A DNA stretch of 64,000 nt from Candidatus Omnitrophota bacterium (lineage in GTDB: Bacteria > Omnitrophota > Gorgyraeia > Duberdicusellales > 4484-171). Of this stretch, positions 10,905 to 64,000 are shown one piece after another. The position numbers and the translations under genes were made by a program. Position 1 is the first letter of the stretch; each line of letters opens with the position of its first letter. Below the pieces are notes generated by a model that ran no database searches, was not told the DNA's origin, and saw nothing but the letters and a program-made list of their open reading frames with translations. The stretch is taken from NCBI GenBank assembly GCA_003154195.1, contig PMCS01000030.1:123446-187445 (forward strand), written 5' to 3'.

Positions 10905-11723
10905 ATGAACAACCAATGGCGGTTAATTTTAGACGATGACAACAACGGCTATTATAATATGGCGGTCGATGAGGCGCTATTTCTTCGCTATCCCACGCAA
11001 AAAATACCTACCTTGAGAATCTACGGATGGCATCCGGCGTGTGTTTCTTTGGGCTACAACCAGGTTTTCAAAACTGTTCTTAAGAAAAATCATCCCTTTG
11101 ATGTTGTGAGGCGTATTACCGGCGGAGCGTCGATCCTGCATTGTAAAGAGATAACCTATAGCTTGGCGTGCTCCGCAGCCGATTTGGATTTGCCGGTAAA
11201 AGTTAAAGATTCTTACGGTACAATTTGTTCATTTTTGTTGGAATTTTACGCAGCGTTAGGTTTGAAAGCCGGTTTTGCTAAAGATATTTTTAATGATGCC
11301 CTGGTGGGACGATATGGAAATTTTTGTTTTTCTCACCGTGAGCATTACGATTTGGTCGTTGACAATAAAAAAATCGGCGGCAATGCTCAAAGGCGTAACC
11401 GCGATGTGATTTTTCAGCACGGGAGTATTCCTTTAATGATTGATTATGATGCTGTTGAGTCGGTGATTAATGATACTGTAACATTGCGTGAGAAGGCGGC
11501 CTCCTTAGAGGATATGCTGGGGCAGCAAGATATTTTTTTATTGCGGGAGAAGTTGGCGGAAAGCTTCGCAAAAACATTTAAGGTTAAACTCGTCGAGTCG
11601 GTATTAAATTTTTCCGAAGAATTACTTGCCAAAAATCTAATAAAAAATAAGTATCAAACCGACGAGTGGAACTTGTATAAGAATACCACTGAAAAATACG
11701 GTTATCCGCTCTTATCCGCGTAA
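10905..11723 (+). CDS. lipoate-protein ligase / octanoyltransferase family protein (BPL/LPL catalytic domain)
   Basis: The LplA/LipM-like N-terminus MAVDEALF...LRIYGWHPACVSLGYNQ. It lies between the gcv genes and lipA. Confidence 0.75.
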   Translation: MNNQWRLILDDDNNGYYNMAVDEALFLRYPTQKIPTLRIYGWHPACVSLGYNQVFKTVLKKNHPFDVVRRITGGASILHCKEITYSLACSAADLDLPVKVKDSYGTICSFLLEFYAALGLKAGFAKDIFNDALVGRYGNFCFSHREHYDLVVDNKKIGGNAQRRNRDVIFQHGSIPLMIDYDAVESVINDTVTLREKAASLEDMLGQQDIFLLREKLAESFAKTFKVKLVESVLNFSEELLAKNLIKNKYQTDEWNLYKNTTEKYGYPLLSA

Positions 11724-11759
11724 GCGGATGGCGGATATTTTTTTGCGAAGCAACCCCTT

Positions 11760-11990
11760 CGCTTCGCTCAGGGGTAATTCGACTATCCCCTGCGGGGATA
11801 GTTCAACTACAGACATTTGCTTCACCTTCGGCTTGCAAATGTCTAAGTTTCACTACAGCCTCGCTGAACATGAGTACATGTTCACTCGGCTAAGTCTCAA
11901 ACCCCTTCGCTAATGCTTCAGGGGTAATTCGACTACAGCCTCGCTGAACATGAGTACATGTTCACTCGGCTAAGCCTCATTAAAATATGC
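11760..11990. repeat. Two tandem copies of the dispersed repeat family C (GGGGTAATTCGACTAC ... CGGCTAAG(T/C)CTCA)
   Basis: A near-identical roughly 75-bp unit occurs at 11861-11921 and 11924-11988. It is related to the copies at 63690-64000, 17640-17770 and 41705-41790. Confidence 0.5.
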
Positions 11991-17645: not shown

Positions 17646-17849
17646 TTCGGCTACTGTCTCAATCTACGCCCCCGCCATCCCATAGATGGCGAGGTCTCGT
17701 CAATTCGTTTAACGAATTGACGGACTTCGGGCTTGATTTCGGTGAAGTCTCATTAAATATTTCCTTGCCCCCCGTAGTATTTCTATTATAATAAAATATA
17801 ACCTGGAATATAATTATAAAGCATAGAGTTCTCTTTTCAGGATATCGGG

Positions 17850-35416: not shown

Positions 35417-35863
35417 ATGTTAACCAAAAAAAGCCCATTTTTTAGAGCATTCTTCCGGTTGAGGAAGGCTACCGGTTTCATCGAACTTATTGTGGCGGCG
35501 CTTATTTTATCCGCTGTGGTGGCCGGGCTTCTGTCTTCTTTTATCTCGGTGCGCAGTTACATCACCCATTCCAACAAACGGCTGGTATCGGCTAATCTGG
35601 GAAGAAGTATTTTGAGCCGGCTTGGCGGATGTGTCAGCGAGGCTTCATGGAACGTTAGCGGCACCGCGCTCTACGCGCCGCCGGGCCAAGCGTGGCAACC
35701 CCATACTGCCGGCGATGTGGCGGTGGGTTTAGGGCCGATTGATAATATAAATTACGATCCTGCTCCTGCCGGTTCTACCGGTTATCGGGTGCGGCGGGTC
35801 GAGACGCCGGCGGGCGACGAACGTTATCGCGAAGTCGAGGTAAATATTACCTATCCCGACTAA
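35417..35863 (+). CDS. minor pilin / pseudopilin (prepilin-type N-terminal cleavage/methylation domain)
   Basis: The G|FIELIVAALILSAVVAG motif. Confidence 0.6.
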   Translation: MLTKKSPFFRAFFRLRKATGFIELIVAALILSAVVAGLLSSFISVRSYITHSNKRLVSANLGRSILSRLGGCVSEASWNVSGTALYAPPGQAWQPHTAGDVAVGLGPIDNINYDPAPAGSTGYRVRRVETPAGDERYREVEVNITYPD

Positions 35864-35935
35864 TCAAAATAATGCTTACGCATTATTTTGATTAGTCGTA
35901 AACGAAAACGTAAAAACAAAACCTGAAAAAATTCT

Positions 35936-36622
35936 ATGGATTATCGGATTCTCGGTTTTCTTTCAAAATATTCCCAAAAAACAAAACGGCTGTATTTTTT
36001 TCCTACCTGCCGGCAGTCCGGTCGGAACCGAAAAAATGCGTCATGCTTGCCTGACGGTAGTCAGGAATTTTTCCGGTTTATAAAATCCGTTACGTTAATC
36101 GAATTGATAATTACGATGACTCTTTTCAGCGTGATCATTATTGCCGCCGGCTCTTTTGAGATCACCGCTAACCGGCTTTTTCTTTCTTCGGAAAGAAAAG
36201 CGGCGGTGCTTAATGAGATGACTTATGTTTTAGAGCATATCAATAAAAGTTCCCTCCGGGTGCATAGTATGGGCGGCGGTAGCGGCGTTCAAGTTACGCC
36301 CAATACGAGGATAGCGTTTAGGTTGGATAATAATCCGCCGACGCCGCTTGTCTTTACCGACGATATATGGGTAGCCTATCAATTTGATACTGCGACGAGT
36401 AATATAAGTTATTGTCCCAACTGGAATACAGCAGGGGCAGGGTCATGCACCGGAGCTTGGGAAGTATTAACTTCAAGATTAAATAGTGTGACTATTGCCA
36501 CTACTCCTTACGTCAGTTTGCAGCTTACGGGCGTGTACAATCCGGCGATAGCGAACGATTCCAGCATTAATCCTAACGTAACTGTTCAGACTACTATTTA
36601 TTGTCCCGGTTACTCCTCATAG
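35936..36622 (+). CDS. pilin-like protein with an unusually long leader; the true start is uncertain
   Basis: A KSVTLIELIITMTLFSVIIIAAGS prepilin-like hydrophobic segment follows a 46-aa N-terminal extension. A TTG or other internal start is possible. Confidence 0.4.
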   Translation: MDYRILGFLSKYSQKTKRLYFFPTCRQSGRNRKNASCLPDGSQEFFRFIKSVTLIELIITMTLFSVIIIAAGSFEITANRLFLSSERKAAVLNEMTYVLEHINKSSLRVHSMGGGSGVQVTPNTRIAFRLDNNPPTPLVFTDDIWVAYQFDTATSNISYCPNWNTAGAGSCTGAWEVLTSRLNSVTIATTPYVSLQLTGVYNPAIANDSSINPNVTVQTTIYCPGYSS

Positions 36623-36653
36623 CTTTTATTTTTTGCTGCGCAAAAAATAAAAG
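36623..36653. repeat. AT-rich palindrome, family A (CTTTTATTTTTTGCTGCGCAAAAAATAAAAG)
   Basis: Perfect inverted repeat. The same core occurs at 39659-39683, 46241-46265, 40053-40080, 52713-52740 and 47497-47525. Confidence 0.6.
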
Positions 36654-36868
36654 ATACCCTCTAACCGGCAAAGCGCTTTAGGCCAATCAGCCAGCCGCCG
36701 AATTGCCTCATAATTAGTATTGCCGCATCAAACACCAGAAGGTTTCAGCGCTTTACCAATACGGGATTATTATTGTTTTATTCTCTTTTAAGCGATAAGC
36801 CCTCCTGGGTAACGCTTATTTATTAGGCAATACTGCGGCGATGTGTTATCTTGCGGTGCCCGAAAAAT

Positions 36869-36877
36869 ATGATATAA
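36869..36877 (+). promoter_or_regulatory. extended -10 element TGATATAAT upstream of the OMP gene
   Basis: Sequence match about 25 nt upstream of ATG 36901. Confidence 0.3.
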
Positions 36878-36900
36878 TCCATATTTATATGGGCGGATCA

Positions 36901-37581
36901 ATGAAAAAAATATTTCTATTTATTTTGTTTATTTCCGGCGTAATTTTTTCTTCGAAAGCGGCGCCGTGTTACGGCACGAGAATGCCCAGCCGGAAGCAAT
37001 TTTTTGCCGGAGCCCAGAGCTATACTATTTTTCAAAGAAAGCTGGAGGGGGATTTCGGCAATCTCCGCAGCCAGCAGGGTTTTTTTACGCTTTCCGGCGG
37101 CCTGAGCGATTGGCTCAGCATCGATTTAAAAATCGGCACGGGAAATATCCTGCAGCACCCGGTCGGCCGGAACGAAATAGATTATCCTACGAGCTTTGCC
37201 GGCGGTTACGGGTATCGCCTGAAATTACTGGATAAAGAAACAACAAAAGCGGTTTTTGGTTTCCAGCATATCAGCGTGCATCCCTATTCTAGGGAAATCG
37301 GCGATGTGCGCAACGAAGCCATTCTTGACGATTGGCAATATTCCCTGCTTGTTTCTCAGCAGGTAAAAACGATTACGCCTTATATCGGCGCGTATTGGTC
37401 GCGTGTTGACTATATCCATCACTGGGATAACGAACATAAACGCAAGATGTCCAGCTTAGCGCATGCGGTCGGCCTGGTCTGCGGCGTTGATTTTGACGTC
37501 ACAAAAAAATCGTGGCTAAATTTAGAGGGGCAGTTTTTTGCCGGCTCCGCCTTTTCCGCAAGTTATAATTATTCATTTTAA
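36901..37581 (+). CDS. outer-membrane beta-barrel protein (hypothetical)
   Basis: Signal peptide MKKIFLFILFISGVIFSSKA, alternating beta-strand pattern and a C-terminal aromatic residue (...YNYSF). Confidence 0.5.
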   Translation: MKKIFLFILFISGVIFSSKAAPCYGTRMPSRKQFFAGAQSYTIFQRKLEGDFGNLRSQQGFFTLSGGLSDWLSIDLKIGTGNILQHPVGRNEIDYPTSFAGGYGYRLKLLDKETTKAVFGFQHISVHPYSREIGDVRNEAILDDWQYSLLVSQQVKTITPYIGAYWSRVDYIHHWDNEHKRKMSSLAHAVGLVCGVDFDVTKKSWLNLEGQFFAGSAFSASYNYSF

Positions 37582-38167
37582 CTAAAAAACTCGTTTTCCA
37601 AACGAATTTTTTAGTTAAGAAGGAAAAAATGCCGCCGTTTTTTGAAAGTTTCCTAAAGCCAAAATATAAGGAATAAAATAAATTCCTTGCAGCCGGCTCG
37701 CCTCACGGCGAAGCCGTGGGCTATCCCTGGGGCAAGCCCGCAGCCCCGTTTCCCTGATATATTGATTAAGGTTCGGGGCGTCCCGTACCTTAGTATACTA
37801 TCTAGGGTAACGGGACAGGGTATTTCGCTGGCTGCATGGCGCTTTGCGCCACCGGAATTTCTTTTATTTGTTTTGTCCGCCACAAATAATAAATTATTCA
37901 GGCGGATCCGCCTTCGGCGGAAAAACCTATGCTGCGGTTTTTCCGCTTGCAAAGCGAGACTTCGCCAAAAGATGGAAACTTTTGGCGAGCAAACTTTCCC
38001 TTTCGTTTCCGAAACGGGAAATTGGATTTTCCAATTTCCCGCGGCAAAAGACGCCATTCATCCCCGCTGCAAGCAGCGGGAAATTCTGGCGGATTTTGTT
38101 AAAAAGAGATTTGGGCGGCATTTTTTCCCGGAGCCGGGAAAATGCGCCAAACGCATTTTACCGGCTA

Positions 38168-39625
38168 ATGATAAAGAAAACCTCAGATTTTCAAACTTAC
38201 CTCGAAGATACATCCAATTTGAAAGGGCATGCTGAATGCCTTTATCTTCCCGAATCTAAAGAAGAAGTCCGGTTCTTAATCGGCGAGTGCAATCGGTCAA
38301 AGTCCCCCCTGACGGTTTCCGCGGGGAGGACCGGGACTACCGCCGGTTGCGTCCCCTTGTCCGGAGCCTTACTTTCTTTGCAAAATCTCAATAAAATTAT
38401 CAATATTGATGCCGGGGTAAAAGAAGCGCGCGTGGAAGCGGGAGTTTTGCTGGAGGATTTGTTGAAAGAGGCAGTTAAATTTAATCTTACCTTACGGGCG
38501 TCGCCTACCGAGCCTCTGGCTTATGCCGGTGGGGCGGTTTCAACCGCCGCTTCCGGCGTGCGGGGCTTTGGCTATGGTTCAATACGAAACTATGTCCGCG
38601 CGATCGAGATTGTCCTGGCGGGAGGCGATGTTCTTAAGATACAACGGGGAAAAATTTTTTCCCTGGGGAGGGCTTTCGATTTCACCTGCGGCGGTAAAAG
38701 ATTTAAATTCAATCTCCCTTCCTACGACATGCCGCCGGTTAAGTCTCAGGCCGGTTTTTTTGTTAAAGATAATATGGACTTGATCGATTTATTCATCGGC
38801 AGTGAAGGCGTGCTGGGGATTATTACCGAATGCTGTCTTTCGCTGCAAACAATCGCGCCGTACATTATCGACGGGTTGGTTTTTTTTGACTGTGAAGAGA
38901 AAGCGTTGGGGTTCAGCGGGAGCGTAAAAAGCCTTAAGCGGGATAACTTGATAAATCCGGCGTCGCTGGAGTTTTTTGATCATAATTCTTTAGAGTTGTT
39001 AGGGCCGGTTTATTCTTTTATCCCCGCTTCGGCCGCGGCGGCAATTTATTTCGAGCAGGAAGCCGAAGATAAATCGTCGTCGGAGCAATTAATGGATACC
39101 TGGGCGAAGCTTATCGAAAACGGCGGCGCGTCCCTGGATACTTGTATCATCGCCGATAATCCCAATGCCCGCCGGAGCATTTTTGAATTCCGGCATAAAG
39201 TGCCGCAGCTCATCAACGAATTTTTAAGAGCGTACGGCCAACAGAAGATTGCTTCCGATATTGCCGTGCCGCCGGAACATTTTGCGGCGATGTATGAATC
39301 CTATAAATCAACCGCCCGGGAAACGGCTCTGCGATACGTCAATTTCGGCCACATCGGCGAAGGGCACCTGCACTTTAATTTCCTGCCGCGCAGTGACCAA
39401 GAAAGCGTCCGGGCCGGGGAAGGCATCGCCCGCCTTTGCCGTCAAGCGGTTGCCTGGGGCGGGACAGTCTGCGCCGAGCATGGGGTAGGCAAGGTTAAAA
39501 AACCTTACCTTAAGATTATGTACGGCGATAAGCATATTAAAGAAATGGCGGCGTTGAAAAAATATTTCGACCCTAATTGCATACTCAATTTGGATAATAT
39601 ATTTGATAAGGAGTTTTTATTGTAG
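38168..39625 (+). CDS. FAD-linked oxidase (GlcD / D-lactate dehydrogenase-like, PCMH-type FAD binding)
   Basis: FAD_binding_4 motifs (RTGTTAGCVP, GSEGVLGIITE) and a C-terminal FAD-oxidase_C domain. The ORF track extension to 37844 runs through a hairpin-dense leader and was rejected. Confidence 0.75.
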   Translation: MIKKTSDFQTYLEDTSNLKGHAECLYLPESKEEVRFLIGECNRSKSPLTVSAGRTGTTAGCVPLSGALLSLQNLNKIINIDAGVKEARVEAGVLLEDLLKEAVKFNLTLRASPTEPLAYAGGAVSTAASGVRGFGYGSIRNYVRAIEIVLAGGDVLKIQRGKIFSLGRAFDFTCGGKRFKFNLPSYDMPPVKSQAGFFVKDNMDLIDLFIGSEGVLGIITECCLSLQTIAPYIIDGLVFFDCEEKALGFSGSVKSLKRDNLINPASLEFFDHNSLELLGPVYSFIPASAAAAIYFEQEAEDKSSSEQLMDTWAKLIENGGASLDTCIIADNPNARRSIFEFRHKVPQLINEFLRAYGQQKIASDIAVPPEHFAAMYESYKSTARETALRYVNFGHIGEGHLHFNFLPRSDQESVRAGEGIARLCRQAVAWGGTVCAEHGVGKVKKPYLKIMYGDKHIKEMAALKKYFDPNCILNLDNIFDKEFLL

Positions 39626-39636
39626 AAGCGGTTTTC

Positions 39637-39683
39637 CCATCCGCGAAGCGGATGGCGGTTATTTTTTGCGCAGCAAAAAATAA
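39637..39683. repeat. composite family A element: GC hairpin CCATCCGCGAAGCGGATGG plus AT palindrome TTATTTTTTGCGCAGCAAAAAATAA
   Basis: The same two modules occur in inverted order at 46241-46289. Confidence 0.6.
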
Positions 39684-39684
39684 T

Positions 39685-40077
39685 ATGAAACGAGAATTAG
39701 ACGTAGTCGCGGCGTTGATTAAAAAAGGCAGAAAGATACTCCTTTGCCGGCGGCATCTTCATGATCACTACGGCGGTTTGTGGGAATTTCCCGGCGGGGC
39801 GGTGGAAAAGGGAGAAACTTTTGAGGCGGCAATCGAGCGGGAGATAAAAGAGGAAACCGATTTAAACATTAAGGCTGTCCGATTGGTGGGTAAATTTTAC
39901 GATGAGGATGAAACGTTGATCATCCATATTTATTTGTATCGTTGCGATATCATTTCGGGGCAGATTGCCGCTCGCGATTGCGCCGATTTTGGATTTTTCC
40001 CCTTGCCGGATATCGCCCGGTTGGATTTAGCTCCAGCCGATAAGAAAATTTATTATTTTTTACTGCGTAAAAAATAA
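39685..40077 (+). CDS. NUDIX hydrolase (MutT-like)
   Basis: Nudix box GGAVEKGETFEAAIEREIKEETDL. Confidence 0.8.
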   Translation: MKRELDVVAALIKKGRKILLCRRHLHDHYGGLWEFPGGAVEKGETFEAAIEREIKEETDLNIKAVRLVGKFYDEDETLIIHIYLYRCDIISGQIAARDCADFGFFPLPDIARLDLAPADKKIYYFLLRKK

Positions 40078-40307
40078 TTTTTGTTCGCCGGTAGGCGAGG
40101 CCGCATTTTTTCCGGAGGAAAAAATGGAAAATATTGCAAATTTTAACGTTAAGGGGTATAATTTGATTCTATCCGCCTTCGCCGAGGCTTCGGCGGATGT
40201 CACTAAATAGGCAAGCCCATGTGGCGGGTAGCCTTGTGAGGCTTCGACGTATGTTGTAGCGGCGGATAATGCATTTAGTTACCATGGGCTTGCTCAAGGG
40301 GTGTTCC

Positions 40308-40868
40308 ATGAAAAAACAGACAATCAGGCAAGAATTGTTAGGGATTATCAGGAAAGACGCTTTTTTTAAGAAAAAAGTGGTTCTTTCCAGCGGTAAGGTC
40401 AGTAATTATTATGTCGATGTGCGCCGGATTAGTTTATCCAGCCGGGGTATTTATCTTACCTCGCGATTGATTTGGGATATTGTTAAAAAAGAAAAGGCTA
40501 CTGCTTTTGGCGGGCCCACTTTAGGCGCCGACCCGATTGTGGCGGGGGTGTGCCTGCTTGCCGCTCAGGAAGGGAAAACGTTAAAAGGGTTTATTATACG
40601 CAAGGAGCCCAAGAAACACGGCCGGCAAAATTTAATCGAAGGTAAAGAATTATCCAAAAAAGATAAAATTATTATCGTTGACGATACCGCTACCAGCGGT
40701 TCTTCGCTTATTAAATCTATCGAGGCGCTGAAACAATCCGGCCTTAAGCCATTTAAGGCGATCGCGGTTGTCGATCGGGAAGAAGGCGCGCGCGATAATC
40801 TTGCTAAATTAAACTGCCCCTTGATTTCCCTGTTTAAAGCCGGCGAAATCGTCGATTTTTCCGGCTGA
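40308..40868 (+). CDS. pyrE: orotate phosphoribosyltransferase-like (type I PRTase)
   Basis: PRPP-binding motif IIIVDDTATSGSS, an N-terminal VLSSGKVSNYY motif and the RBS AAGGGG. The ORF track start at 40269 is embedded in a predicted leader helix. Confidence 0.65.
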   Translation: MKKQTIRQELLGIIRKDAFFKKKVVLSSGKVSNYYVDVRRISLSSRGIYLTSRLIWDIVKKEKATAFGGPTLGADPIVAGVCLLAAQEGKTLKGFIIRKEPKKHGRQNLIEGKELSKKDKIIIVDDTATSGSSLIKSIEALKQSGLKPFKAIAVVDREEGARDNLAKLNCPLISLFKAGEIVDFSG

Positions 40869-40924
40869 ACTGCCGGCGGAATCGCCGGCGAGCCGGAAAA
40901 ATTTCCGACGGAGACTGCAAAACA

Positions 40925-41719
40925 ATGGTTTTTGAAAAAATCGCCAAAAAAGTTTTTATCCGGTATCTGTTATTTGCCATCTGCTTTCTGTCTTTATGCG
41001 GGTGCGCTACCGAGTATAATACCGGGACTCATAAGGAAGATTGGATTTTTTATTCGACGGAGAGCGAGGTTTCGATGGGGCTGGCAATCTCCCGGGCAAT
41101 CGCTAAAGACAAGGAAATGAAAATATCCAATGACCCCATCGATATAAAACGCGTCAATAGAATCGGCGATAAGATAGCTGAAGTTTGCGACCGGAGCGAA
41201 TTGACTTATTATTTTTATGTGCTCTTGGACGAGAAAGAGGTAAATGCTTTTAGCCTTCCCGGCGGGTATGTGTATATCTTTAAAAAGCTTCTCGATGATT
41301 TAAACGATGATGAGCTGGCGTTTGTCCTGGCGCATGAGGTGGGCCATATTGTATCGCGCCACGCCATAAAGGCATTACAGGCGGCGATAGCGGCTAATGT
41401 TTTGACCCTTGCCGGAGCGTTTGCGCCCGGAGGCAGCGGGGAATTTGCGCAGGGTCTTTCTTTTGCTTTAGCGCAGATCATGGTGGGTTATTCGCGGGAA
41501 GACGAATTCAACGCCGACGAACAGGCGGTAAAGTACACTAAAATATGCGGTTATGACTCTAAGGCCGGGATAAACGTCATGGAAAAACTTTATAAAGAAG
41601 AAAAGAAAACCATAAACCCGATTTCATTTTTTCGGACTCACCCTTATACCGCGCAGCGAATCCGCCATATCAGAGAAACCCTGCATCTCCCGCTTTCTGC
41701 CGCCGACTACCTCAATTAA
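40925..41719 (+). CDS. M48-family zinc metallopeptidase lipoprotein
   Basis: HEVGH (HExxH) motif plus a distal E; lipobox LSLCGC. Confidence 0.8.
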   Translation: MVFEKIAKKVFIRYLLFAICFLSLCGCATEYNTGTHKEDWIFYSTESEVSMGLAISRAIAKDKEMKISNDPIDIKRVNRIGDKIAEVCDRSELTYYFYVLLDEKEVNAFSLPGGYVYIFKKLLDDLNDDELAFVLAHEVGHIVSRHAIKALQAAIAANVLTLAGAFAPGGSGEFAQGLSFALAQIMVGYSREDEFNADEQAVKYTKICGYDSKAGINVMEKLYKEEKKTINPISFFRTHPYTAQRIRHIRETLHLPLSAADYLN

Positions 41720-41790
41720 TGAGGCTTCGCCGAAATCAAGCCCGAAGGGCGCAGATTGAGGCGGTAGCCGAATTACCCAGCACTAATTTT
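41705..41790. repeat. repeat family C copy (inverted orientation)
   Basis: TTAATGAGGCTTCGCCGAAATCAAGCCCGAAGG is the reverse complement of CTTCGGGCTTGATTTCGGTGAAGTCTCATTAA at 17712-17745. Confidence 0.5.
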
Positions 41791-41922
41791 GCTGTGGCAA
41801 AATTAGTGCTGGGTATAGCGTAAACAGCTACTTCGTCGGTGACGTTTCGCTTTCCCAGCAGGAAAAATTAATCTGCCAATAGGCAGGACGGAGCCGGAAA
41901 AATGCGTTTCTTATTTTTCCGG

Positions 41923-42912
41923 CTAAAGGGCGTTTTTTACCGCCAGCAGGGTGATGAGGCTGGTAGAATTAAAAATCGAATGAAAAATAATCGGCAGAGT
42001 AATATTTTGCGTTTTTTCGTAAAGATAACAGAGGCAGAGGCTTATTACCAAAAGAGGCAGGAAATATTGCGGTGTTCCATGAGGGAGAACAAAAAATATT
42101 GAAGTCAAAACAGCGGCAGCCACGGAAGAATATTTTTTTCTTACCAGCCGGTAGATAAAGCCGCGAAAAAATAACTCTTCGGCAACCGGCCCCAGAATTA
42201 TTATTTGTCCACAAAGCAATAAGGAAAAAAATATATTTTTCGAAGCAAGGACTAATTCCACCGCCGGGTTAAGCGAATATTTTAAGCCCAGCGCTTCGGC
42301 GATAAAGTTGTTGGCAACCGCGGCGGCTAACAATATGGGGATCATTGCCGTGTAGGTTTTCAGCGTCGCGGCGAGATGGCTCTTTTTTAAGGGAGAAAAA
42401 AGAAACGACGGTTTTAAAAACGCAACGGTCGCGGCAATGGCCGCTATTTCGATAATCAGGTTAACGATTATGGGAAAATTTGTTTTTTGGGATGAAAGAT
42501 AATTTTTAAACGGTTTTAATGCCGGAATAACTTTCGCCAGGCCGGCAAAAGATATTCCCGACGCGTAGAGCAGAAAAATAAGAAGCAGAATAATAAAGAT
42601 TAATTTCGCCGAGAGCTCTTCGTTTAAGGGGAATATTTTTTTCGCTTCGTCGATATCGAGGATAGGCTTTTTATTCATTTTTCTTACTACGAGGTCGGCT
42701 AAATTTAGCATTCCCGCAGTCAGGAGCACCAGATAGAGGATGCCGACTCCGGCCAGGGGCAGGGATTTTTCCGGCGCGGCGGTAATTTTTTCTTTGGTGA
42801 TTTGGGAGAAAATTTCCTTATCGTTATCTTTCCGGGGAGGATGGGAGATGTTATTCAGGAATATGGCCATAAAAAAAACGATGGATAAAATGATATAGAT
42901 GTTTTTTCGCAT
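41923..42912 (-). CDS. CPBP-family intramembrane metalloprotease (CAAX protease / Abi-like)
   Basis: Motifs EELFFRGF and FHSIFN, with about eight TM helices. Confidence 0.8.
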   Translation of the reverse strand: MRKNIYIILSIVFFMAIFLNNISHPPRKDNDKEIFSQITKEKITAAPEKSLPLAGVGILYLVLLTAGMLNLADLVVRKMNKKPILDIDEAKKIFPLNEELSAKLIFIILLLIFLLYASGISFAGLAKVIPALKPFKNYLSSQKTNFPIIVNLIIEIAAIAATVAFLKPSFLFSPLKKSHLAATLKTYTAMIPILLAAAVANNFIAEALGLKYSLNPAVELVLASKNIFFSLLLCGQIIILGPVAEELFFRGFIYRLVRKKYSSVAAAVLTSIFFVLPHGTPQYFLPLLVISLCLCYLYEKTQNITLPIIFHSIFNSTSLITLLAVKNAL

Positions 42913-43028
42913 TAAAGCATTGTAGCAAATTTAGAGTTTGCCGCAATGAAATAAAATATTTCATAGTTTGCCGGTTGTTTGGTATAATTGCTAAGGAAAT
43001 AAAAACCGGTATAAATACATTTTCAATT

Positions 43029-43118
43029 GGAGAGGTGGTCGAGTTGGTTTAAGGCGCCGGTCTCGAAAACCGGAGTCCGACTTATGTTGGACCGTGAGTT
43101 CAAATCTCACCCTCTCCG
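43029..43118 (+). tRNA. tRNA-Ser (anticodon CGA)
   Basis: Acceptor stem GGAGAGG/CCTCTCC, anticodon loop CTCGAAA, long variable arm and T-arm GTGAG-TTCAAAT-CTCAC. No CCA is encoded. Confidence 0.85.
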
Positions 43119-43282
43119 TTTTTTGCTTTGCAAAAAACGGAAAAGTCTCGCCCGCCAAAATTGTAAAACAATTTTGGCGAGACGGACTCTCCGCAAAAGT
43201 TTGCTACCGTTCGCTCAGACAAATTATGGCGAGATATTGTTCTTCAAAGCCGGGCGTAGAAAATTGAAGAAAATGCTTTTCT

Positions 43283-44416
43283 ATGTTTGAGCGGAAGGGA
43301 ATTAAAATTATTGATGCGCGAATGAAAAACATAGTTAAAGGCAATTCAACAAAAGTTATTTTAATAGCGCTTGGCGTGCTTTTCGTTGCTTCCATTCTGG
43401 TCGGTATCCCAATGCAAATGGTTATGGCCATTCATAAAGCGGCGGCCATAATATGGGAGGAGAAGAATTTATCTCATGGAATCGATGGCTATGTTTTAGA
43501 AGCACATGGAAATAGTCTGGTCGCTTTTGATCTTAACAATAAAAGCGCCCATATTGTAAAAGCTGTGCCGAAAGAATCATTTTCTGATGGATGGCGCATT
43601 TTTGATGTAACGGGGCCAAGCAGAGATGGGAAAATAATTTACCTCTTAACGAATCCATGGAATAAACAAACTAATTCATGGGATGATCACGCTGTATGCG
43701 CATGCGTGCTTTGAATGTGTGGTCTCCAAGGTTTGGATGATATTGTTTTGGCTGACAAATTTAATGTTGGATACGACACGACGCAACATTTATCAATTTC
43801 GCCCGATGGAAAATTGTTAGCGACGTTGTTCCATCGAGAAAAACAGAAAGATTCAAGCAGCGGAAGGGGTTCTGAAGCTGGTGTTTTGGAAATATTCCGC
43901 GTCCCCTCAATGGAAAAGGTTAAAGAAATTTCCTCTGTAGCTGATGGGAATATCTCTTGGTTTCCTGACAGCTCTTCAATTCTTTTTACCATGCCGGAAG
44001 GTAAGCGCAGTGTTATTAGAAAATTAGAAATAGGATCAGGAAAAATATTAAGTTTCAATCAAGGCATGTATCAACGAATATCTCCCGATGGTTCCAAGAT
44101 GGCTTATCTCGATTTAGAAAATAATCATTGGGATTTAAAAATAAGGAATTTAGACAATAAGGGGTCTATCCGAAGCCCTTTAACAAAAAAAGATGAAATA
44201 ATCGGTATTATTGGCATGGTTGACGCGAATCGAATTTTGTATGTTGGTGTTACAACCGGTATGCTTCCATCCAAGATCCAAAATGGATCCATATCATTAA
44301 AAATTGCGGATGCAGCGAAGGGAATGTTCGAGACTCTTCATGTATTTGAGGATGAAAATTGTGGCGGCTATTCATATGCGATAAATGAAGAAGTTAGTTA
44401 TGGAAATATTGATTAG
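43283..44416 (+). pseudogene. TolB-like beta-propeller (PD40 repeat) protein interrupted by an in-frame TGA at 43712-43714
   Basis: ORFs 43283..43714 and 43715..44416 share a reading frame. PD40-like motifs (ISPDGKLLA, ISPDGSKMAY) occur in both halves. It is a paralog of the 47625..48569 product. Confidence 0.5.
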
Positions 44417-44837
44417 AATATTTTAGCTATTTTGAATAGAACACATTTAGCTATAGGGTTTGGCTTTTGTCCATGGCTACTCGCCATTTTTGCCGATGGC
44501 AAGAATGATAAAACTCCGCGTTAGACTTTTGCCTTGTAAGAAACCCTGACCCAAATAAGGTATCCAGATTTTTTCCTTCCCGTTTGGCGCGAAGCTTTGA
44601 ATCAGTTAAGCCAGATTCCCGAATTATTAATGTGCGAGTTAGTTTTTCCCTCAAACCGCTAATGGCAACGCTAATTTTGAAAATTACGACTACCTTACTT
44701 TTGATATTACGGCGATGAACGACGTTAGCCCCAAGCAGGTGGAGGAGATGCTTATTGGGGAACGCCCTCGTTGAGCCGCCTTCACATTAGACTATCTTCG
44801 CAAACATTCTTATCTTATTGTCTTCGTGTATTGTATT

Positions 44838-44880
44838 TTTTTATCCTATTTTTTGTTGCAATTGCAATAAAAAATAGGAT
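44838..44880. promoter_or_regulatory. 40-bp palindrome containing TTGCAATTGCAA (candidate operator)
   Basis: ATCCTATTTTTTGTTGCAATTGCAATAAAAAATAGGAT sits directly upstream of the PaaX-like gene. A related palindrome is at 45838-45880. Confidence 0.45.
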
Positions 44881-44889
44881 AATAATTTT

Positions 44890-45732
44890 ATGAAAAAAAC
44901 CATTAATAAAATTGGTTATGCGCTTGTTGATACCGCAGGGGTTGCCAAGAATGTTCTACGGGACGGGTGGGAAGGTGTTTGTTATTTATTGTGGCTGGTT
45001 AATCCGCCTACGATGAGCAAGGCAATGTTCGGCCCGCAGATGCGGGAGTTGTATTCTTATAAGTCGCTTTATCAAAGAATGGACGGTTTATACGAGAAAG
45101 GTTATATCGGGCGCATCGGCCGGCACAAAAAATTTTCGTTTTTTTTCAAAAAAGGATTCCGTTATAATTTTCTCGATGATTATTTGGCGTTAAAAATAGA
45201 AAAATTCTACAAACCTTGGGACAGGAAATGGCGGCTTCTTATTTATGATATTCCTCAGAAAAACAGCCCCAAGCGGGAACAGTTCCGGAGGCATATTAAA
45301 AACCTGGGGTTCGGTATGTCCCAGAAAAGCTGTTGGGTTAATGCTTATGATTTTACCTACCCGATTGATGAGTTTTGCCGCCAGAATAAGATGAGTGATT
45401 GCATTTGTTCGTATGAAGGGGCATTTTTGACCGGGGAGAATATAGATACGATGGTGGAGCGGGTTTGGAAAATAAGCGATTTTTTCTCTGTTTACGAAAC
45501 GATAATATCGATGGCCGATGGTTATCTGCGCGCGATTAAAACACAACAAATATCATTTAAAGATTACTATGTGAAATATTGCGAGCTATTTGCGCAATAC
45601 AAAAATGCCTTATTACGCGATCCTTTCCTGCCCAAAGAATTTACGCCGCTGTGGCAAAAAAGAGATCTTGCCGAAAATAGATTAAGTATTTTACTCCGCG
45701 CGCTTTTTAAAGAATGCGGCATGAGTCTATAA
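44890..45732 (+). CDS. PaaX-family-like transcriptional regulator
   Basis: The RKWRLLIYDIPQKNSPKREQFRRHIKNLGFGMSQKSCWVN region resembles the PaaX middle (Cas2-like) domain. The N-terminal region is wHTH-like. Confidence 0.5.
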   Translation: MKKTINKIGYALVDTAGVAKNVLRDGWEGVCYLLWLVNPPTMSKAMFGPQMRELYSYKSLYQRMDGLYEKGYIGRIGRHKKFSFFFKKGFRYNFLDDYLALKIEKFYKPWDRKWRLLIYDIPQKNSPKREQFRRHIKNLGFGMSQKSCWVNAYDFTYPIDEFCRQNKMSDCICSYEGAFLTGENIDTMVERVWKISDFFSVYETIISMADGYLRAIKTQQISFKDYYVKYCELFAQYKNALLRDPFLPKEFTPLWQKRDLAENRLSILLRALFKECGMSL

Positions 45733-45837
45733 AAATTACACTACCCCCGCGCTAAAACTACTTTTTTTATCCCCAGTATCGCAAGGACTTAAATTACTTT
45801 ACTGACGTCTTTATGAAAAAGGGAAAACATTATCCTT

Positions 45838-45880
45838 AAATCTTGTTGCAATTGCAACAAGAAAATAGGATGAAAAGAGG
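45838..45880. promoter_or_regulatory. palindrome CTTGTTGCAATTGCAACAAG...AAAATAGGAT, related to 44838-44880
   Basis: It shares the GTTGCAATTGCAA core and the AAAATAGGAT tail with the upstream palindrome. Confidence 0.45.
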
Positions 45881-45912
45881 TTGATGAATTTGTGAGGAAG
45901 GCGATAAAACAA

Positions 45913-45942
45913 AAAAGAGCCGAAGAAATCCGGCTCTTTTTT
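45913..45942 (+). terminator. terminator-like hairpin AAAAGAGCCGAAGAAATCCGGCTCTTTTTT
   Basis: GC stem followed by a T-tract. Confidence 0.45.
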
Positions 45943-46158
45943 GTTGATGATGCGCGGGGTGTCCGCCGTATCGCATGCGGCATGTGAACTCGGGGAGATC
46001 TCGCCAAGCGAAGCTTGGCGGAGGACTTGCCACTTGTCTCTCCGGTAAGGCCGGAGAGGGTGTCCTAAGGATGCTGCAAGTGCCAATAATGTGCTAGCCA
46101 TTTGCTGAACGATAAACCTTCCGTTACATTTCAAACCGATTGAATTAAAAGAAAACCA

Positions 46159-46240
46159 TGCGCGGGGTGGGAGTTGAACCCACATGGGGGTTACCCATAC
46201 GCTTCTGAGGCGTACGCGTCTGCCATTTCGCCACCCGCGC
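46159..46240 (-). tRNA. tRNA-Leu (anticodon CAG)
   Basis: The reverse complement GCGCGGGTGGCGAAATGGCAGACGCGTACGCCTCAGAAGCGTATGGGTAACCCCCATGTGGGTTCAACTCCCACCCCGCGCA aligns well with bacterial tRNA-Leu, including the long variable arm. Confidence 0.85.
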
Positions 46241-46289
46241 TAATTTTTTGCTGCGCAAAAAATTAGAGCTCCATCCGCTTCGCGGATGG
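46241..46289. repeat. composite family A element (AT palindrome TAATTTTTTGCTGCGCAAAAAATTA plus hairpin CCATCCGCTTCGCGGATGG)
   Basis: Inverse arrangement of the element at 39637-39683. Confidence 0.6.
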
Positions 46290-46519
46290 AAAAATAAAAA
46301 CTTTTGATATTTTAAGGATAGGTTGCAAACCTGTTCTTACCGGAATTTATATTTTCCTAAATCCGCCGGAGGCGGATTTGGGGATAAAATAACCCCGCGG
46401 TGTTTCGCGGGGTTATTTTATCAATGCTATTATATTTTATTACCTTTGTCAACTAAATATGCTATAATCCCTAATCGGTAAACGCCGCAAAAGCGCTCTT
46501 CCGGTCAGGGGATTATCGT

Positions 46520-47470
46520 ATGAATGCCGCCATAACCTTAGCTATTATAAAACTTACGTTGCTTGCCGTATTCGGTTTTTTTCTCTACCGGAAGGCGGTA
46601 ATCGATGAAAAAAGCCTTACTTTTTTAACTACCTTTCTTATCTCTTTTGCCATACCATTTTTAATTTTTTCCCGTATTGTCGCTAACCGGAAACTCCACA
46701 GCGGGTTTTCGCCGCTTTTGTTCCTGCCGATAAGCCTGGGGATATTTGTTTTGGGGCTGGTTTTAGGTTTTTTATTTTCGCTTAAACGCAATCATGATTT
46801 TAAAAAAGAATTCATCGGCCTCGTCAGCTTTCAAAACGCGTTATATCTGCCGATGAGCCTGGCGTTCGCGCTTTTTCCCGCGGCGGTCAGGGAAGAATTT
46901 CTGCTCTACGCGTTTTTGTATTTAATCGGTTTTGACGTATTGATGTGGTCGGCGGGCAGTTTCCTGATTTTTAAAAAGGAAGGCGACCGATATGATGTTA
47001 AAACTCTTTTTACGCCGCCGATAATCAGTATTGCCGTTTCTTTATTTTTAGTTTATACGGGAAGCGCTAAGTTTATTCCTTCTTTTCTTATGGATACGGT
47101 TAAGATGCTCGGCGATACCAGTTTCGTCTTTTCGATGCTGGTACTGGGTTGTTTCCTGGCTAAAATCAGCCGCGAGGGGATGTGGCGCAAATTTTTAATT
47201 ACCGCCGAAGCCTCTATCCTGAAGCTTATCGTTATGCCTCTTGTTGTTTTAATCTTTTTAGCCTATTTTAAGATATTTTCTCTTTTGGGGATGTTTATCC
47301 TGATGCAGGCGGCGATGCCTTCGGCTTCTTCCCTGCCGATCGTCGCCGGTTTACGCGGCACGGATTCAAGTTTTGTTTCGCAGGGAGTATTGTCTACGCA
47401 TGTTTTGAGCATCATTACGATTCCTTTGTGGCTGAGTTTGTATTTAAAAATATCCGGGTTTTCGTGGTAA
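46520..47470 (+). CDS. AEC-family transporter (auxin efflux carrier / Mem_trans)
   Basis: About ten TM helices with the AEC-typical two-repeat architecture. An extended -10 TGCTATAAT lies at 46460-46468. Confidence 0.75.
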   Translation: MNAAITLAIIKLTLLAVFGFFLYRKAVIDEKSLTFLTTFLISFAIPFLIFSRIVANRKLHSGFSPLLFLPISLGIFVLGLVLGFLFSLKRNHDFKKEFIGLVSFQNALYLPMSLAFALFPAAVREEFLLYAFLYLIGFDVLMWSAGSFLIFKKEGDRYDVKTLFTPPIISIAVSLFLVYTGSAKFIPSFLMDTVKMLGDTSFVFSMLVLGCFLAKISREGMWRKFLITAEASILKLIVMPLVVLIFLAYFKIFSLLGMFILMQAAMPSASSLPIVAGLRGTDSSFVSQGVLSTHVLSIITIPLWLSLYLKISGFSW

Positions 47471-47624
47471 TGCTAAACCACCGACTTCGTCGATGGTAAT
47501 TCACTATTTTTTTTGCACGGCAAAAAAATAATTACCGTCCGCTTCGCGGAAGAAGAAAAAAATAAATATAAAAATACAAAATGTATTTATGTTGTGATGC
47601 GACAATCATGAGGGGGATTCGATT

Positions 47625-50604: not shown

Positions 50605-52710
50605 ATGGCGCGTAAATATCCGTTGGAAAAAATCAGGAATATCGGAATCGTGGCGCATATCGACGCCGGTAAAACTACTACTACCGAGCGGGTGCTTTTC
50701 TATACGGGAAAATCTCATAAGTTGGGAGAGGTCCATAACGGCAGCGCGGTTATGGATTGGATGAAGCAGGAACAGGAAAGAGGAATCACTATTACCAGCG
50801 CTGCTACTACTTGTTTCTGGCAAGATTGCAGTATTACTATCATTGATACTCCCGGGCATGTCGATTTTACTGCGGAGGTGGAAAGGAGTTTACGCGTTCT
50901 TGACGGAGCGGTCGTTCTTTTTTGTGCCGTAGGCGGCGTAGAGCCGCAGAGTGAAACAGTGTGGCGCCAGTCGCAGAAATATAATGTCCCCAAGGTTGTT
51001 TTTATTAATAAAATGGATCGAGTGGGGGCTGATTTTTTTATGGTTTTAAAAGAAATACAGCATAATCTGGGCGCTAACGCCATACCTTTGCAGGTTCCTA
51101 TTGGGGCAGAAGAGAATTTTCGCGGCGTGATTGACTTGATCGAGATGAAGGCTTATATCTATGAAGAAGATTCATTGGGCAAGGAGTTTCGTATAGAAGA
51201 TATTCCTGCGGATTTAATAGCGATCGCTAAAGAATACAACCATAAGACTGTGGAAAAAGCCGTGGAGCTTGATGACAAATTGATGGAAAAGTATCTTGAG
51301 TCACAGGAATCGATTACCCCCGAAGAATTAAAAGCGGCAATCCGTAAAGGAACGGTTGCCAACAAGGTTGTTCCGGTGATCTGCGGCGCGTCTTTTAAAA
51401 ATAAAGGCGTACAGAAACTCCTTGACGCGATTATCGATTATCTTCCTTCGCCGGCGGATTTACCGCCGGTTACCGGCCACGATCCCCGGGATACCGATAA
51501 GCAGCTCGTCAGAAGTTGCGACGATAAGGAACCGTTCAGCGCGTTGGCGTTCAAAGTCCAGGCTGATTCTCACATGGGAAAACTTGTTTATTTGCGTGTT
51601 TATTCCGGCAGTCTTCCCGCCGGTACCTATATTACTAATGCCACAAAAGATAAAAAAGAAAGAATCAGCAGGATCTTCCAGATGCATGCCAACCAGCGCC
51701 AGTCTCAAGCTGAAGTTAATGCCGGCGATATTGTAGCGGTGGTAGGTTTGGAAGATACGATAACCGGCGATACTCTTTGTGATGAAAATAATCCGGTTAT
51801 ATTAGAGGCGATAGAATTTCCTACCCCGGTTATTTCCATAAGCGTCGCGCCTAAGACGCGCGCCGACCAGGATAAGCTGGGTAAGGGATTAATGCGGCTG
51901 GCAGAAGAAGACCCCACGTTCAATGTCGAGTCGGACCAGGAAACCAATGAAACTATTCTTTCCGGCATGGGCGAGCTACACCTGGAGATAATTGTCGACC
52001 GCTTAAAGCATGAATTCGGCGTTGAGGCTATCGTGGGTAAGCCTAAGGTTGCCTATAAGGAAACGATTACTCATAGCGTTGAAGAGGAATATAAGCACAT
52101 TAAGCAGTCCGGCGGCCGCGGCCAATACGGGCATGTTATTTTAAAGCTTGAGCCGGCCGATCCCGAGACCGGTTTCGAATTTATCAATGCCGTGGTAGGA
52201 GGAAGGATCCCCCGCGAATACATTCCGGCCGTAGAAAAAGGCGTAATCGAAGCGATGAAAGAAGGCGCTTATGCCGGCTATCCGGTTGTGGACGTGAAAG
52301 TCACGCTGCTCGATGGTTCATTCCACGAAGTTGATTCCAGCGAGATAGCCTTTAAGATTGCCGCCATCACTTGCTTCAAGAAAGCTTTCTTAAGGTGTTC
52401 TCCAATTTTACTTGAGCCGGAAATGTCTATGGAAATAATTTCTCCCCGAGATTTTGCCGCCAATATCGTCGGCAATCTTTGTTCCCGCCGGGGAAAAGTT
52501 TTAGGCATGGAGGAAAAGGTCGGCCAGCAAGTTATCGCTGCCAACGCTCCGCTTTCGGAGCTATTCGGTTATACTACCACTTTGCGTTCGCTTTCCAGCG
52601 GCCGCGCCAACTATTCGATGCACTTCGAAAAATACGTCCCCGTGCCGTTTGCCATCGCCGAAGCCGTAAGGGAAGAACGGGCAAAAGAAAAAGCGGCGCG
52701 TAACAAATAG
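50605..52710 (+). CDS. fusA: translation elongation factor G
   Basis: G domain [17 protein letters not shown] and NKMD motifs. 701 aa. Confidence 0.95.
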
Positions 52711-52869
52711 GTTATTTTTTACGCAGTAAAAAATAACCTTGGACCGCTGGCGCGGATCGGGAAAGTTCCGGTTCAGGCATTTTTCCCGGTTTGGCAAACT
52801 CTTTCAAAATACCTCAACTCCCCGAGTCAAATCAATCCGGGAAAATCGATAACCCTTTATTCTCCTTCG

Positions 52870-63680: not shown

Positions 63681-63689
63681 TTTAACTAC

Positions 63690-64000
63690 CATTTTCGGGG
63701 ATAGTCCAACTACAAGTATTTTTTTGCGTCTTCGGTACAAATATCTAAATTTCACTAACCCCTTCGCTTCGCTCCGGGGTAATTCAACTACCGTTTCAAT
63801 CTGCGTTCTTCAGGCTTGATAATTCAACTAAGCCCGGAGTACCGGGCAAGTTTCATTACGGCGAAGTTTCAAACTCATTACCCTTCGGCTCCCTTCGGTC
63901 GCTCAGGGTAATTCGACTACAGCCTCTCGCTTCGCTCTTCCAGAGCTTGCGCTCGGCTAAGTCTCATTATAATAAATTGCTGCCCACTTCCGCAAGTTGA
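63690..64000. repeat. repeat family C array (at least three units ending GGGTAATTC(G/A)ACTAC ... CGGCTAAGTCTCATTA)
   Basis: Shares CCCCTTCGCTTCGCTC(A/C)GGGGTAATTCGACTAC and GGGGATAGT(T/C)CAACTACA motifs with 11728-11990. Confidence 0.5.

Follow-up and report, generated by a model that had tools for sequence, protein, structure and literature searches.

The question raised by this locus is why an AT-rich palindrome recurs at its gene boundaries. The window, by which we mean the whole 64-kb stretch analyzed here, comes from contig PMCS01000030.1 of a Candidatus Omnitrophota bacterium, and a first-pass annotation of it had described a dispersed element, family A, in which an AT palindrome occurs with or without a companion GC hairpin, and had proposed that it is either a protein-binding palindrome or a small mobile element resembling the repetitive extragenic palindromic (REP) sequences. 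We find that copies adjoining gene starts all present the same strand of their loop to the gene, a rule that was unexpected and that the annotation had missed. We tentatively favor the reading, while giving it a little less than an even chance, that family A is a lineage-specific REP-like hairpin repeat that would be transcribed and would act, or be constrained, as an RNA hairpin at transcript boundaries. The host phylum is a candidate one, known from metagenomes alone, and the family is unusually clean in having fully paired stems, a single loop class and a terminator hairpin as companion; the orientation rule gives a direct handle on whether it acts as RNA or as DNA, and on whether it is a parasite or an adopted expression signal.

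The AT palindrome is 25 nt long and has the form TTATTTTTT-[RC NNN GY]-AAAAAATAA. Searching the window with the pattern TTATTTTTTGCGCAGCAAAAAATAA and allowing up to three mismatches gives eight strand-matches compared with 0.00 in 100 dinucleotide shuffles, confirming that dispersed copies are present; these lie at 1027-1051, 36626-36650, 39659-39683, 40053-40077, 46241-46265 and 52712-52736, and an arms-only pattern brings two more, at 1067-1091 and, more weakly, at 47507-47531. There are 7-8 copies per 64 kb where 0 are expected by chance, a density of about one per 9 kb. In the modal copy a C-GNA-G triloop separates a T-rich 5' arm from an A-rich 3' arm, most copies being centered on GCGCAGC, GCGAAGC, ACGCAGT or a similar sequence, with a T-run that varies in length from 5 to 8. 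Two pairs of cores agree across strands, 52712-52736 being 100% identical to the reverse complement of 40053-40077, and the core at 36626 matching the reverse complement of that at 39659 likewise. The GC hairpin, CCATCCGC-GAA-GCGGATGG, is present in two exact copies and three variants: a search with CCATCCGCGAAGCGGATGG finds the exact copies at 39637-39655 (+) and 46271-46289 (-) and a 3-mismatch variant at 47535-47553, and two further diverged hairpins are at 47478-47496 and 11714-11729 (GTAA loop).

Both modules are members of a wider population of perfect intergenic hairpins whose GNA or TNC triloops are closed by a C-G pair. A scan of the window for perfect hairpins with stems of at least 8 bp and loops of 3-7 nt finds 46, compared with 7.4 in shuffles; 22 have stems of at least 10 bp (0.6 in shuffles), 24 have triloops (1.7) and 15 have triloops of the C-GNA-G or C-TNC-G class (0.1). 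Nearly all carry a T-run within the 5' arm and an A-run within the 3' arm. Rfam, scanned at both gathering and E-value thresholds, contains no family matching the hairpins.

The placement of these hairpins at gene ends, as annotated, is well borne out. Intergenic DNA makes up 8.3 kb, or 13%, of the window, and it is touched by 35 of the 46 perfect hairpins and by all 15 of the GNA/TNC type, which lie in it or at its edge. At 36623, 40052 and 52709 the palindrome touches or overlaps a stop codon, and the copy at 46240 adjoins the first base of a tRNA-Leu gene (its 5' end, on the minus strand). A NUDIX (mutT-like) gene is flanked on both sides: its ATG (39685) lies one base beyond the end (39683) of the palindrome starting at 39659, and its last 8 codons and TAA are encoded by the copy at 40052, an example of how the palindromes shift predicted gene ends and so bear on annotation.

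The host is an uncultured, deep-branching member of the Omnitrophota from peat, and the window sequence is 100% identical to contigs of the NCBI metagenome-assembled genome GCA_003154645.1 and of JGI, ENA and Logan peat assemblies, and one assembly carries it on a 210-kb contig. For comparison, further contigs were fetched (designated by L-numbers, such as L042 and L126), including same-signature loci, that is, peat-metagenome contigs with the tetranucleotide profile of the window (r = 0.96-0.98, the two window halves giving 0.979) among the matches listed in a metagenome pattern scan. Palindromes and GC hairpin both recur in these contigs, which belong to the same genome or a sister genome, and the family is not confined to the window. 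Here the 3' edge of the palindrome lies within -1 to +2 nt of the start codons of long open reading frames (ORFs), and the start-adjacent genes, with the NUDIX gene, encode adenylate kinase, UvrB, LysRS, a sigma-70 factor and a PD-(D/E)XK nuclease. The adk start context is MKIILFGAPGSGKGTQ, and the gene directly follows a 451-aa ORF that is possibly SecY, from its size and position only; the uvrB context is MDKFKLVSHFKPTGDQP, and a gene for a MraY/WecA-type transferase in another organism (L076) has the same start arrangement. The encoded Pfam domains start within residues 1-11, which marks the ATGs as true N-termini. In this organism most genes have no Shine-Dalgarno sequence and are A-rich before the ATG even without a palindrome, as in GCAAAAAATATG at ArgRS, and the A-arm thus looks like native start context.

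The loop is the sole asymmetric part of the element, and at gene starts its orientation is fixed. We compared T/A-type hairpins with GNA or TNC loops in the window and the same-signature loci (among the matches listed), and an ATG with an ORF is found at the 3' edge in 10 of 31 cases in the GNA orientation versus 0 of 31 in the TNC orientation (Fisher p = 8e-4). When hairpins are assigned to their nearest boundary, those no more than 40 nt from a gene 5' end comprise 11 with GNA on the sense strand and none with TNC; farther from the start the ratio is 6 GNA:9 TNC, and at 3' ends it is 5:5. The L042 copy, upstream of lysS (loop region GCGCAGT, with a sense-strand G·U), and the tRNA-Leu copy also follow the rule, and two contigs from other organisms, L066 and L076, have the same GNA-sense arrangement at the start. 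Relative to the + strand, which holds nearly all of the genes in the window and has a positive GC skew throughout, the loops are 8 GNA and 7 TNC; since this count is unbiased, orientation follows the adjacent gene and not the replication strand. Nearest-neighbor folding energies do not distinguish GNA from TNC loops and so cannot explain the rule, and the asymmetry of G·T versus A·C mismatches, taken as a signature of RNA, was uninformative (15 to 13). The orientation rule argues for a strand-specific role or constraint that would be tied to expression.

In two of the same-signature loci the start-adjacent hairpin lies downstream of a recognizable promoter, a placement also overlooked by the first-pass annotation. 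In L042 a consensus TTGACA-17-TATAAT ends 14 nt before the hairpin, and in L046 (uvrB) a -10-like site is 13 nt before it, so that the predicted transcripts start 6-8 nt before the hairpin, which would then form nearly the whole of the 5' untranslated region (5'UTR). A sigma-70 promoter scan upstream of the start-adjacent copies is clear in only 2 of 12 cases; most of the others have no recognizable promoter nearby and look intercistronic, as with adk after the 451-aa ORF. In 10-12 cases the DNA has the geometry of a 5'UTR hairpin that would pair with the translation start region. Predicted RNA stabilities are -6.5 to -13 kcal/mol, compared with -25 to -30 kcal/mol reached by canonical long terminators in this genome.

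These observations suggest how such a hairpin might work. At start-abutting copies the mRNA would carry the GNA loop, and the A-rich arm would provide a Shine-Dalgarno-less stretch just before the AUG; the U-rich arm would pair with this A-rich start region, and often also with the A and U of the AUG, masking it. Forming almost the entire 5'UTR or intercistronic spacer, the hairpin could set translation initiation, 5'-end stability, or both. Copies at stop codons would serve as 3' hairpins. In composites the GC hairpin together with the U-rich arm would act as an intrinsic terminator of the upstream gene, and the composite would be a compact terminator-plus-leader module. Transcription through the hairpins, their effects on translation, stability and termination, and the origin of the copies are all matters that we infer.

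The composites themselves are well defined. Those at 39632-39681 and 46294-46243 are 88% identical in opposite orientations, and are, as annotated, the same two-module unit inverted. Both were listed first, with the most G-C stem pairs, in a scan for terminator-like sites between 35 and 54 kb, the sites being 39637-39667, where the GC hairpin leads into CGGTTATTTTTT, and its twin on the minus strand, 46291-46269, which leads into CTCTAATTTT. A GC-rich hairpin succeeded by a U-tract, the hallmark of an intrinsic terminator, is thus seen in the composite but not in the AT palindrome alone, where the T-run is part of the 5' arm and a T5 follows the stem at 40052 only. The earlier remark that these stems make poor terminators holds for the AT palindrome by itself but not for the composite, in which GC hairpin and T-rich arm together make a canonical terminator-like site. 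The order relative to the downstream gene is fixed, with the GC hairpin (GAA on the sense strand) followed by a short spacer (often CGG), the AT palindrome (GNA on the sense strand) and the start, and is seen at the NUDIX gene, tRNA-Leu and adk in L044. A (G)GCGG-like spacer between the two modules recurs in other copies, and its conservation even though it is unpaired is evidence of either shared descent or sequence-specific use.

How the copies arose can be approached from their stems, which reach 6, 4, 3, 0, 1, 1 and 3 bp past the 25-nt core, compared with an expectation of 0.35. These extensions are copy-specific and take in nucleotides of tRNA-Ser, the EF-G stop codon, and start codons (CAT...ATG). 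Because a fixed transposing unit would not bring complementary flanks, the arms must also have been perfected or extended in place. In an alignment of 38 hairpins, each chosen to have a perfect inner stem of 9 bp or more, the outer pairs, which the selection left free, still form well above the level of the controls, 14 of 18 having changed on both sides, and the covariation score is 0.351 compared with 0.143 in shuffles. We favor an origin in which copying would have been combined with local perfecting of the arms by template switching.

One copy varies in its presence. JGI contig L126 corresponds to positions 39515-40520 of the window and is 100% identical to it but for a 31-bp gap at 40053-40083. 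The missing segment, TTATTTTTTACTGCGTAAAAAATAATTTTTG (the palindrome plus TTTTTG), is asymmetric and leaves a 2-nt TT ambiguity at the junction; with the gap, one family A copy is absent, and the NUDIX gene, whose product is otherwise 130 aa long, reads through to give one of 164 aa. We lean slightly toward a deletion rather than an insertion, because the read-through tail in L126 crosses both a hairpin and the next gene's promoter, and because the filled allele has the length that we take, from E. coli MutT, to be that of a normal C-terminus. Contigs of the same species are 99.9-100% identical, and the next relatives, named Omnitrophota or Omnitrophica, are 72-73% identical in EF-G, with nothing of intermediate divergence for comparison of orthologous sites.

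The hairpin style is lineage-specific rather than phylum-wide, since perfect hairpins are almost absent from three further EF-G loci of Omnitrophota, each 22 kb long and one of them taken from a closed genome of 1.5 Mb; no T/A GNA palindrome was found in these three loci. In a set of 185,000 species genomes, of which the window's own genome is not a member, the degenerate 25-mer occurs at 24 loci in scattered taxa. The metagenome scan likewise matched many unrelated organisms, including unrelated multi-copy families (among the matches listed), and the identity of the 25-mer across organisms is most likely a matter of convergence rather than homology. A lead toward cross-phylum homology and a REP-associated tyrosine transposase (RAYT), which came from a low-GC group with GTAG-containing flanks, was dropped when that group proved to be green-algal plastid DNA, identified by PsbC (Pfam PF00421) and a ClpP-like ORF with insertions. 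The intergenic DNA of these plastid contigs is a dense hairpin mosaic, resembling bacterial interspersed mosaic elements, that includes the identical 25-mer with GNA loops. The plastid contigs, all of low GC, are L031, L034, L045, L058, L060, L088, L091, L112, L113, L115 and L119 (JGI Ga0316218-Ga0316223).

In its behavior the population recalls REP sequences, being extragenic, clustered and high in copy number, with discrete units gained or lost. The first-pass interpretation is partly supported, 'REP-like' being the better half of its guess: the elements are dispersed, extragenic, hairpin-forming and lineage-specific, with one copy present or absent, but no transposase was found in the window or the fetched loci of this organism, nor any target-site duplication.

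Several observations weigh against the reading of family A as a transcribed REP-like hairpin. The putative RNA-level role is read from DNA sequence, and perfect AU-rich stems of the predicted stability, lying over the starts of essential genes, should repress them, which would be odd for housekeeping functions. The C-GNA-G motif is best known as a DNA minihairpin (PMC3201870), and points to single-stranded DNA as much as to RNA. Stop-adjacent copies have no preferred loop orientation, and one RNA mechanism may not cover all copies. The 31-bp indel comes from one short metagenome contig and could have happened in either direction, and four other strain-variant contigs differ only by single-nucleotide polymorphisms, one to two each, with all palindromes kept. 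Identity among copies is weak evidence of copying, because the design space is small enough to explain most of it, and recent copying is unproven. Finally, a tblastn search with an Omnitrophota Y1_Tnp protein (RAYT, PF01797) found no match in the window or in the fetched loci of this organism, which amount to about 10% or less of its genome.

Family A could instead be a functionless selfish or mutational by-product, an explanation that we consider unlikely but the best of the alternatives. Copies would spread at the DNA level, by RAYT-like or other transposition of single-stranded DNA or by template switching nucleated by d(GCGNAGC), with quasi-palindromes being perfected between the T-tract of a terminator and the A-rich start of the next gene, and the orientation rule would reflect only those insertions that are tolerated. 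The C-GNA-G loop with its 5'-C/3'-G closing pair is a known hyper-stable DNA hairpin (PMC3201870), and perfect, copy-specific stems that enter neighboring functional nucleotides fit template-switch correction (PMC5941160). The half element at 11714-11753 resembles a T-tract and minihairpin still without an A-arm, and the lineage-specific expansion, the discrete 31-bp presence/absence polymorphism, the mixed loop orientation away from gene starts and the similar green-algal plastid mosaics, including the same 25-mer, are all consistent with such a process. However, the 11:0 orientation and the exact abutment to the start codons of essential genes would need strong selection at the level of expression, neither the conserved unpaired (G)GCGG spacer nor the sequence of the GC hairpin is explained by structure-driven mutation alone, and a transposase is lacking from the DNA searched.

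A more far-reaching possibility, which we regard as improbable, is that the orientation-locked hairpin is a general gene-start signal, either a loop-initiated promoter with its leader or a hairpin gating a Shine-Dalgarno-less start for the ribosome or an RNA-binding factor; together with the terminator hairpin it would make a portable 'stop here, start here' cassette. If true, such a cassette would, in spreading through the genome, rewire adk, uvrB, lysS, a sigma-factor gene and a tRNA gene.

The promoter component can be weighed by itself. The T-arm would supply a -10-like TATTTT, transcription would begin at the purine of the GNA loop, and the A-arm would become a 12-17 nt leader without a Shine-Dalgarno sequence, while in composites the GC hairpin and T-run would end upstream transcription and the same T-run would serve as the next promoter. 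Counted from the loop A of TTATTTTTTGCGCA, the TATTTT occupies precisely -12 to -7, and the discriminator is GC-rich; the orientation rule places purines rather than pyrimidines in the sense-strand loop; and tRNA-Leu and the NUDIX gene have no recognizable sigma-70 promoter between the upstream terminator-like hairpin and the start. We nonetheless consider this decidedly improbable, as no copy has a -35 or TGn element at the right distance, the canonical promoters in L042 and L046 lie upstream of the whole hairpin, variation of the T-run from 5 to 8 shifts the putative -10 relative to the loop, and a promoter has no need of a perfectly complementary transcribed arm.

That the copies are ordinary intrinsic (Rho-independent) terminators, some of them bidirectional, is very doubtful. 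Several do begin at or overlap stop codons, the composite GC hairpin followed by TTATTTTTT scores as a terminator, and TTTTTG follows the copy at 40052. But a T-run in the 5' arm and an A-run in the 3' arm are the opposite of the expected A-tract, hairpin and U-tract, with most copies having no later U-tract, and many copies follow the promoter but precede the start codon of the very gene whose transcription they would end. The canonical terminators of this genome also look different (46383-46422 and 35857-35898, at -25 to -28 kcal/mol), and other Omnitrophota do not have this hairpin style.

Least probable of all, and barely tenable, is the proposal carried over from the first-pass annotation of a protein-binding palindrome, that is, double-stranded operators of a dimeric regulator or nucleoid protein recognizing TTATTTTTT-N7-AAAAAATAA: the arms are conserved around a variable center and lie near promoters and gene starts, but arms that change together (14 of 18 on both sides), stems extended copy by copy and an asymmetric, GNA-enriched loop strictly oriented at starts are unexpected of a symmetric operator and leave the proposal unsupported, as do the variation of arm length and sequence outside the short T/A run, the presence of copies directly behind stop codons and within a coding sequence at its 3' end, and a density of about one per 9 kb.

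Three other identities were considered and rejected: a DNA uptake sequence, as no copies lie inside genes; an array of clustered regularly interspaced short palindromic repeats (CRISPR), as the copies are single, dispersed at gene boundaries and irregularly spaced, with no array in the window; and the operator of a PaaX-like regulator. Palindromes at 44841-44882 and 45841-45862 lie on either side of the PaaX-like gene, which has a Cas2-like middle domain; they share a different center, GTTGCAATTGCAAC, and each overlaps a promoter-like TTGCAA-16/17-GATAAT. These are probably the regulator's own operator and not family A.

Most of the copies listed in the first-pass annotation are real, with some adjustment of their limits. 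At the left end of the window its single copy at 1038-1097 resolves into two adjacent ones, a family A copy at 1021-1057 (+) with a perfect 17-bp stem and a GGA loop, 45 nt upstream of the PilZ gene (1102), and a variant at 1063-1095 (+) with a 14-bp stem and an AGAAG loop, ending 6 nt before the ATG at 1102. Two looser members, 889-919 (T5/A5 arms, TTC loop) and 925-951 (GTAATTTTTCGC GAA GCGAAAAATTAC), lie nearby, downstream of tRNA-Pro. Within 754-1101 same-strain contigs of other assemblies end at 921, 956 and 1059, each no more than 5 nt from a hairpin end; the hairpins thus break short-read assemblies. There is indeed an element at the annotated 11724-11760, but it is only a half composite (11714-11753, +) comprising the GC hairpin ATCCGC-GTAA-GCGGAT, the spacer GGCGG, ATATTTTTTT, the minihairpin GCGAAGC and AA, without an A-arm; the GTAA loop of its GC hairpin (11714-11729) contains the stop codon of the lipoate-ligase gene.

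The copy at 36623-36653 (+; 14-bp stem, TGC loop) begins on the base directly following the TAG of a pilin-like gene (35936-36622). Upstream of the NUDIX gene, the GC hairpin at 39637-39655 (+) lies 12 nt past the stop of an FAD-oxidase gene and precedes the copy at 39659-39683 (+), which has an 11-bp stem and a GCA loop on the sense strand; at the 3' end of the NUDIX gene is 40052-40083 (+), comprising a palindrome at 40052-40078 (12-bp stem, TGC loop) and TTTTTG. A looser member at 40104-40126 (+; CATTTTTTCC GGA GGAAAAAATG) is just upstream of the promoter-like TTGCAA-17-TATAAT of the orotate phosphoribosyltransferase gene, and another at 43115-43141 (+; TCCGTTTTTTGC TTT GCAAAAAACGGA) takes the last 5 nt of tRNA-Ser into its 5' arm. 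The inverse composite at 46240-46290 (-) reads GC hairpin (GAA loop), AGCT, AT palindrome (GCA loop) and first base of tRNA-Leu; its palindrome, 46240-46266, has a 12-bp stem and a TGC loop as read on the + strand. Also upstream of tRNA-Leu is a canonical bidirectional terminator at 46383-46422, GATAAAATAACCCCGCG-GTGTTT-CGCGGGGTTATTTTATC (-28 kcal/mol), directly downstream of a minus-strand promoter-like TTGACA-17-TAGCAT. The AT palindrome annotated at 47497-47545 is present as a weak copy (47508-47528; 9-bp stem, ACG loop) between the two diverged GC hairpins 47478-47496 and 47535-47553, the whole forming a degenerate composite (47478-47553) after a permease stop. The last copy, 52709-52739 (+), has a 14-bp stem and a GCA loop, and its 5' arm overlaps the TAG stop of EF-G.

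Other organisms provided two further observations on the core palindrome. In L064 (144-170) and also in L068, from an organism of about 0.55 GC, it precedes, at a distance of 75 nt, the gene of an IS200-like Y1 transposase (243-776), the only transposase adjoining any copy among the matches listed. In L074 (1972-2182), L075 and L078, from an unrelated low-GC organism, a 62-bp tandem repeat of up to 4 units carries a core palindrome, GTTATTTTTTACATCGTAAAAAATAAC, in each unit.

The window contains additional repeats. A second intergenic class consists of short, unlike hairpins each followed by a linker of about 12 nt, TAATTCGACTAC, AGTTCAACTAC or AAGTTTCACTAC (13 matches versus 5.9 expected), in arrays at 11752-11986 and 63678-63990, one upstream of a lipoyl-synthase gene and the other after a 1534-aa ORF, and lone linkers are present at 17643-17654 and 41764-41775. 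Pairs of the motif CAGATGATCGCTGA, spaced by 24 nt, are found at 3129-3166 and 4292-4329 (+) and 10855-10892 (-), in three short intergenic stretches that separate biosynthetic genes, giving 6 matches versus 0.2 expected. Within the 586-nt spacer 37582-38167, a 238-bp stretch (37871-38103) with hairpins at 37962-37988 and 38015-38041 shares 94.5% identity with L035 2656-2891, part of an otherwise unrelated contig, and could be a conserved or mobile non-coding element; an Rfam E-value scan of it gave no credible match, only a far sub-threshold match to a snoRNA model at 37958-38052. Lastly, the minus-strand ORF 22442-24442 (666 aa) contains, at 23478-23762, a cluster of GC-rich perfect hairpins that includes CCCTGCGG-CTTG-CCGCAGGG and CCCCGCGG-CTTG-CCGCGGGG, reflecting either a repeated protein motif or a miscalled ORF.

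Set beside known systems, family A has little in common with miniature inverted-repeat transposable elements: the window copies and fetched loci show no consistent flanking direct repeats and no parent insertion sequence, and the one filled/empty pair has only the 2-nt TT ambiguity around an asymmetric gap. It resembles fourU-type RNA thermometers in that a U-run pairs with a purine- or A-rich start region upstream of or including the AUG; thermometers, however, are gene-specific, imperfect and mask a Shine-Dalgarno sequence, whereas family A is a perfect hairpin before many unrelated housekeeping genes without one, and has no Rfam match. Short dispersed repeats are known as a class in chlorophycean plastid genomes, and there the identical 25-mer with GNA loops is one module of dense intergenic mosaics, in an unrelated genome and with other flanking modules. 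The d(GCGAAGC) and d(GCGCAGC) minihairpins, GNA triloops that are extra-stable as DNA and depend for this on the 5'-C/3'-G closing pair (PMC3201870), are literally the centers of most family A copies, closure included, but are described as model oligonucleotides or isolated phage or plasmid-origin sites and not as dispersed chromosomal repeats. Perfect inverted repeats are over-abundant, and template switching has been proposed to turn imperfect ones into perfect ones (PMC5941160); the copy-specific extension of family A stems into neighboring functional nucleotides is similar, whereas the modal 25-nt sequence, preferred loop class, companion GC hairpin, a density far above that in E. coli and the orientation rule at gene starts are not.

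REP-like repeats have to our knowledge been studied almost solely in Proteobacteria, where their role is still debated, and we know of no description of strict loop orientation or start-codon abutment among them. The stems of family A are perfect and AT-rich with copy-specific outer pairs, whereas those of REPs are imperfect, GC-rich and conserved in sequence; family A has no conserved unpaired GTAG-type head, and flanks differ among the window copies; it forms single hairpins or pairs of unlike hairpins (GC and AT) rather than the inverted REP doublets of REPINs; and no RAYT gene accompanies it in the DNA searched. REPs (PMC3116915) are nevertheless the closest known kind, family A being at most a candidate member. 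Like family A, REP populations include excision and insertion variants (PMC3116915). Family A shares with REPs and REPINs a high copy number of short extragenic palindromes (7-8 strict and about 15 GNA-type per 64 kb, with more in same-signature contigs), clustered as mosaics in some spacers, located at the ends of genes and between cistrons, expected to fold into hairpins as single-stranded DNA or as mRNA, and divided into lineage-specific families.

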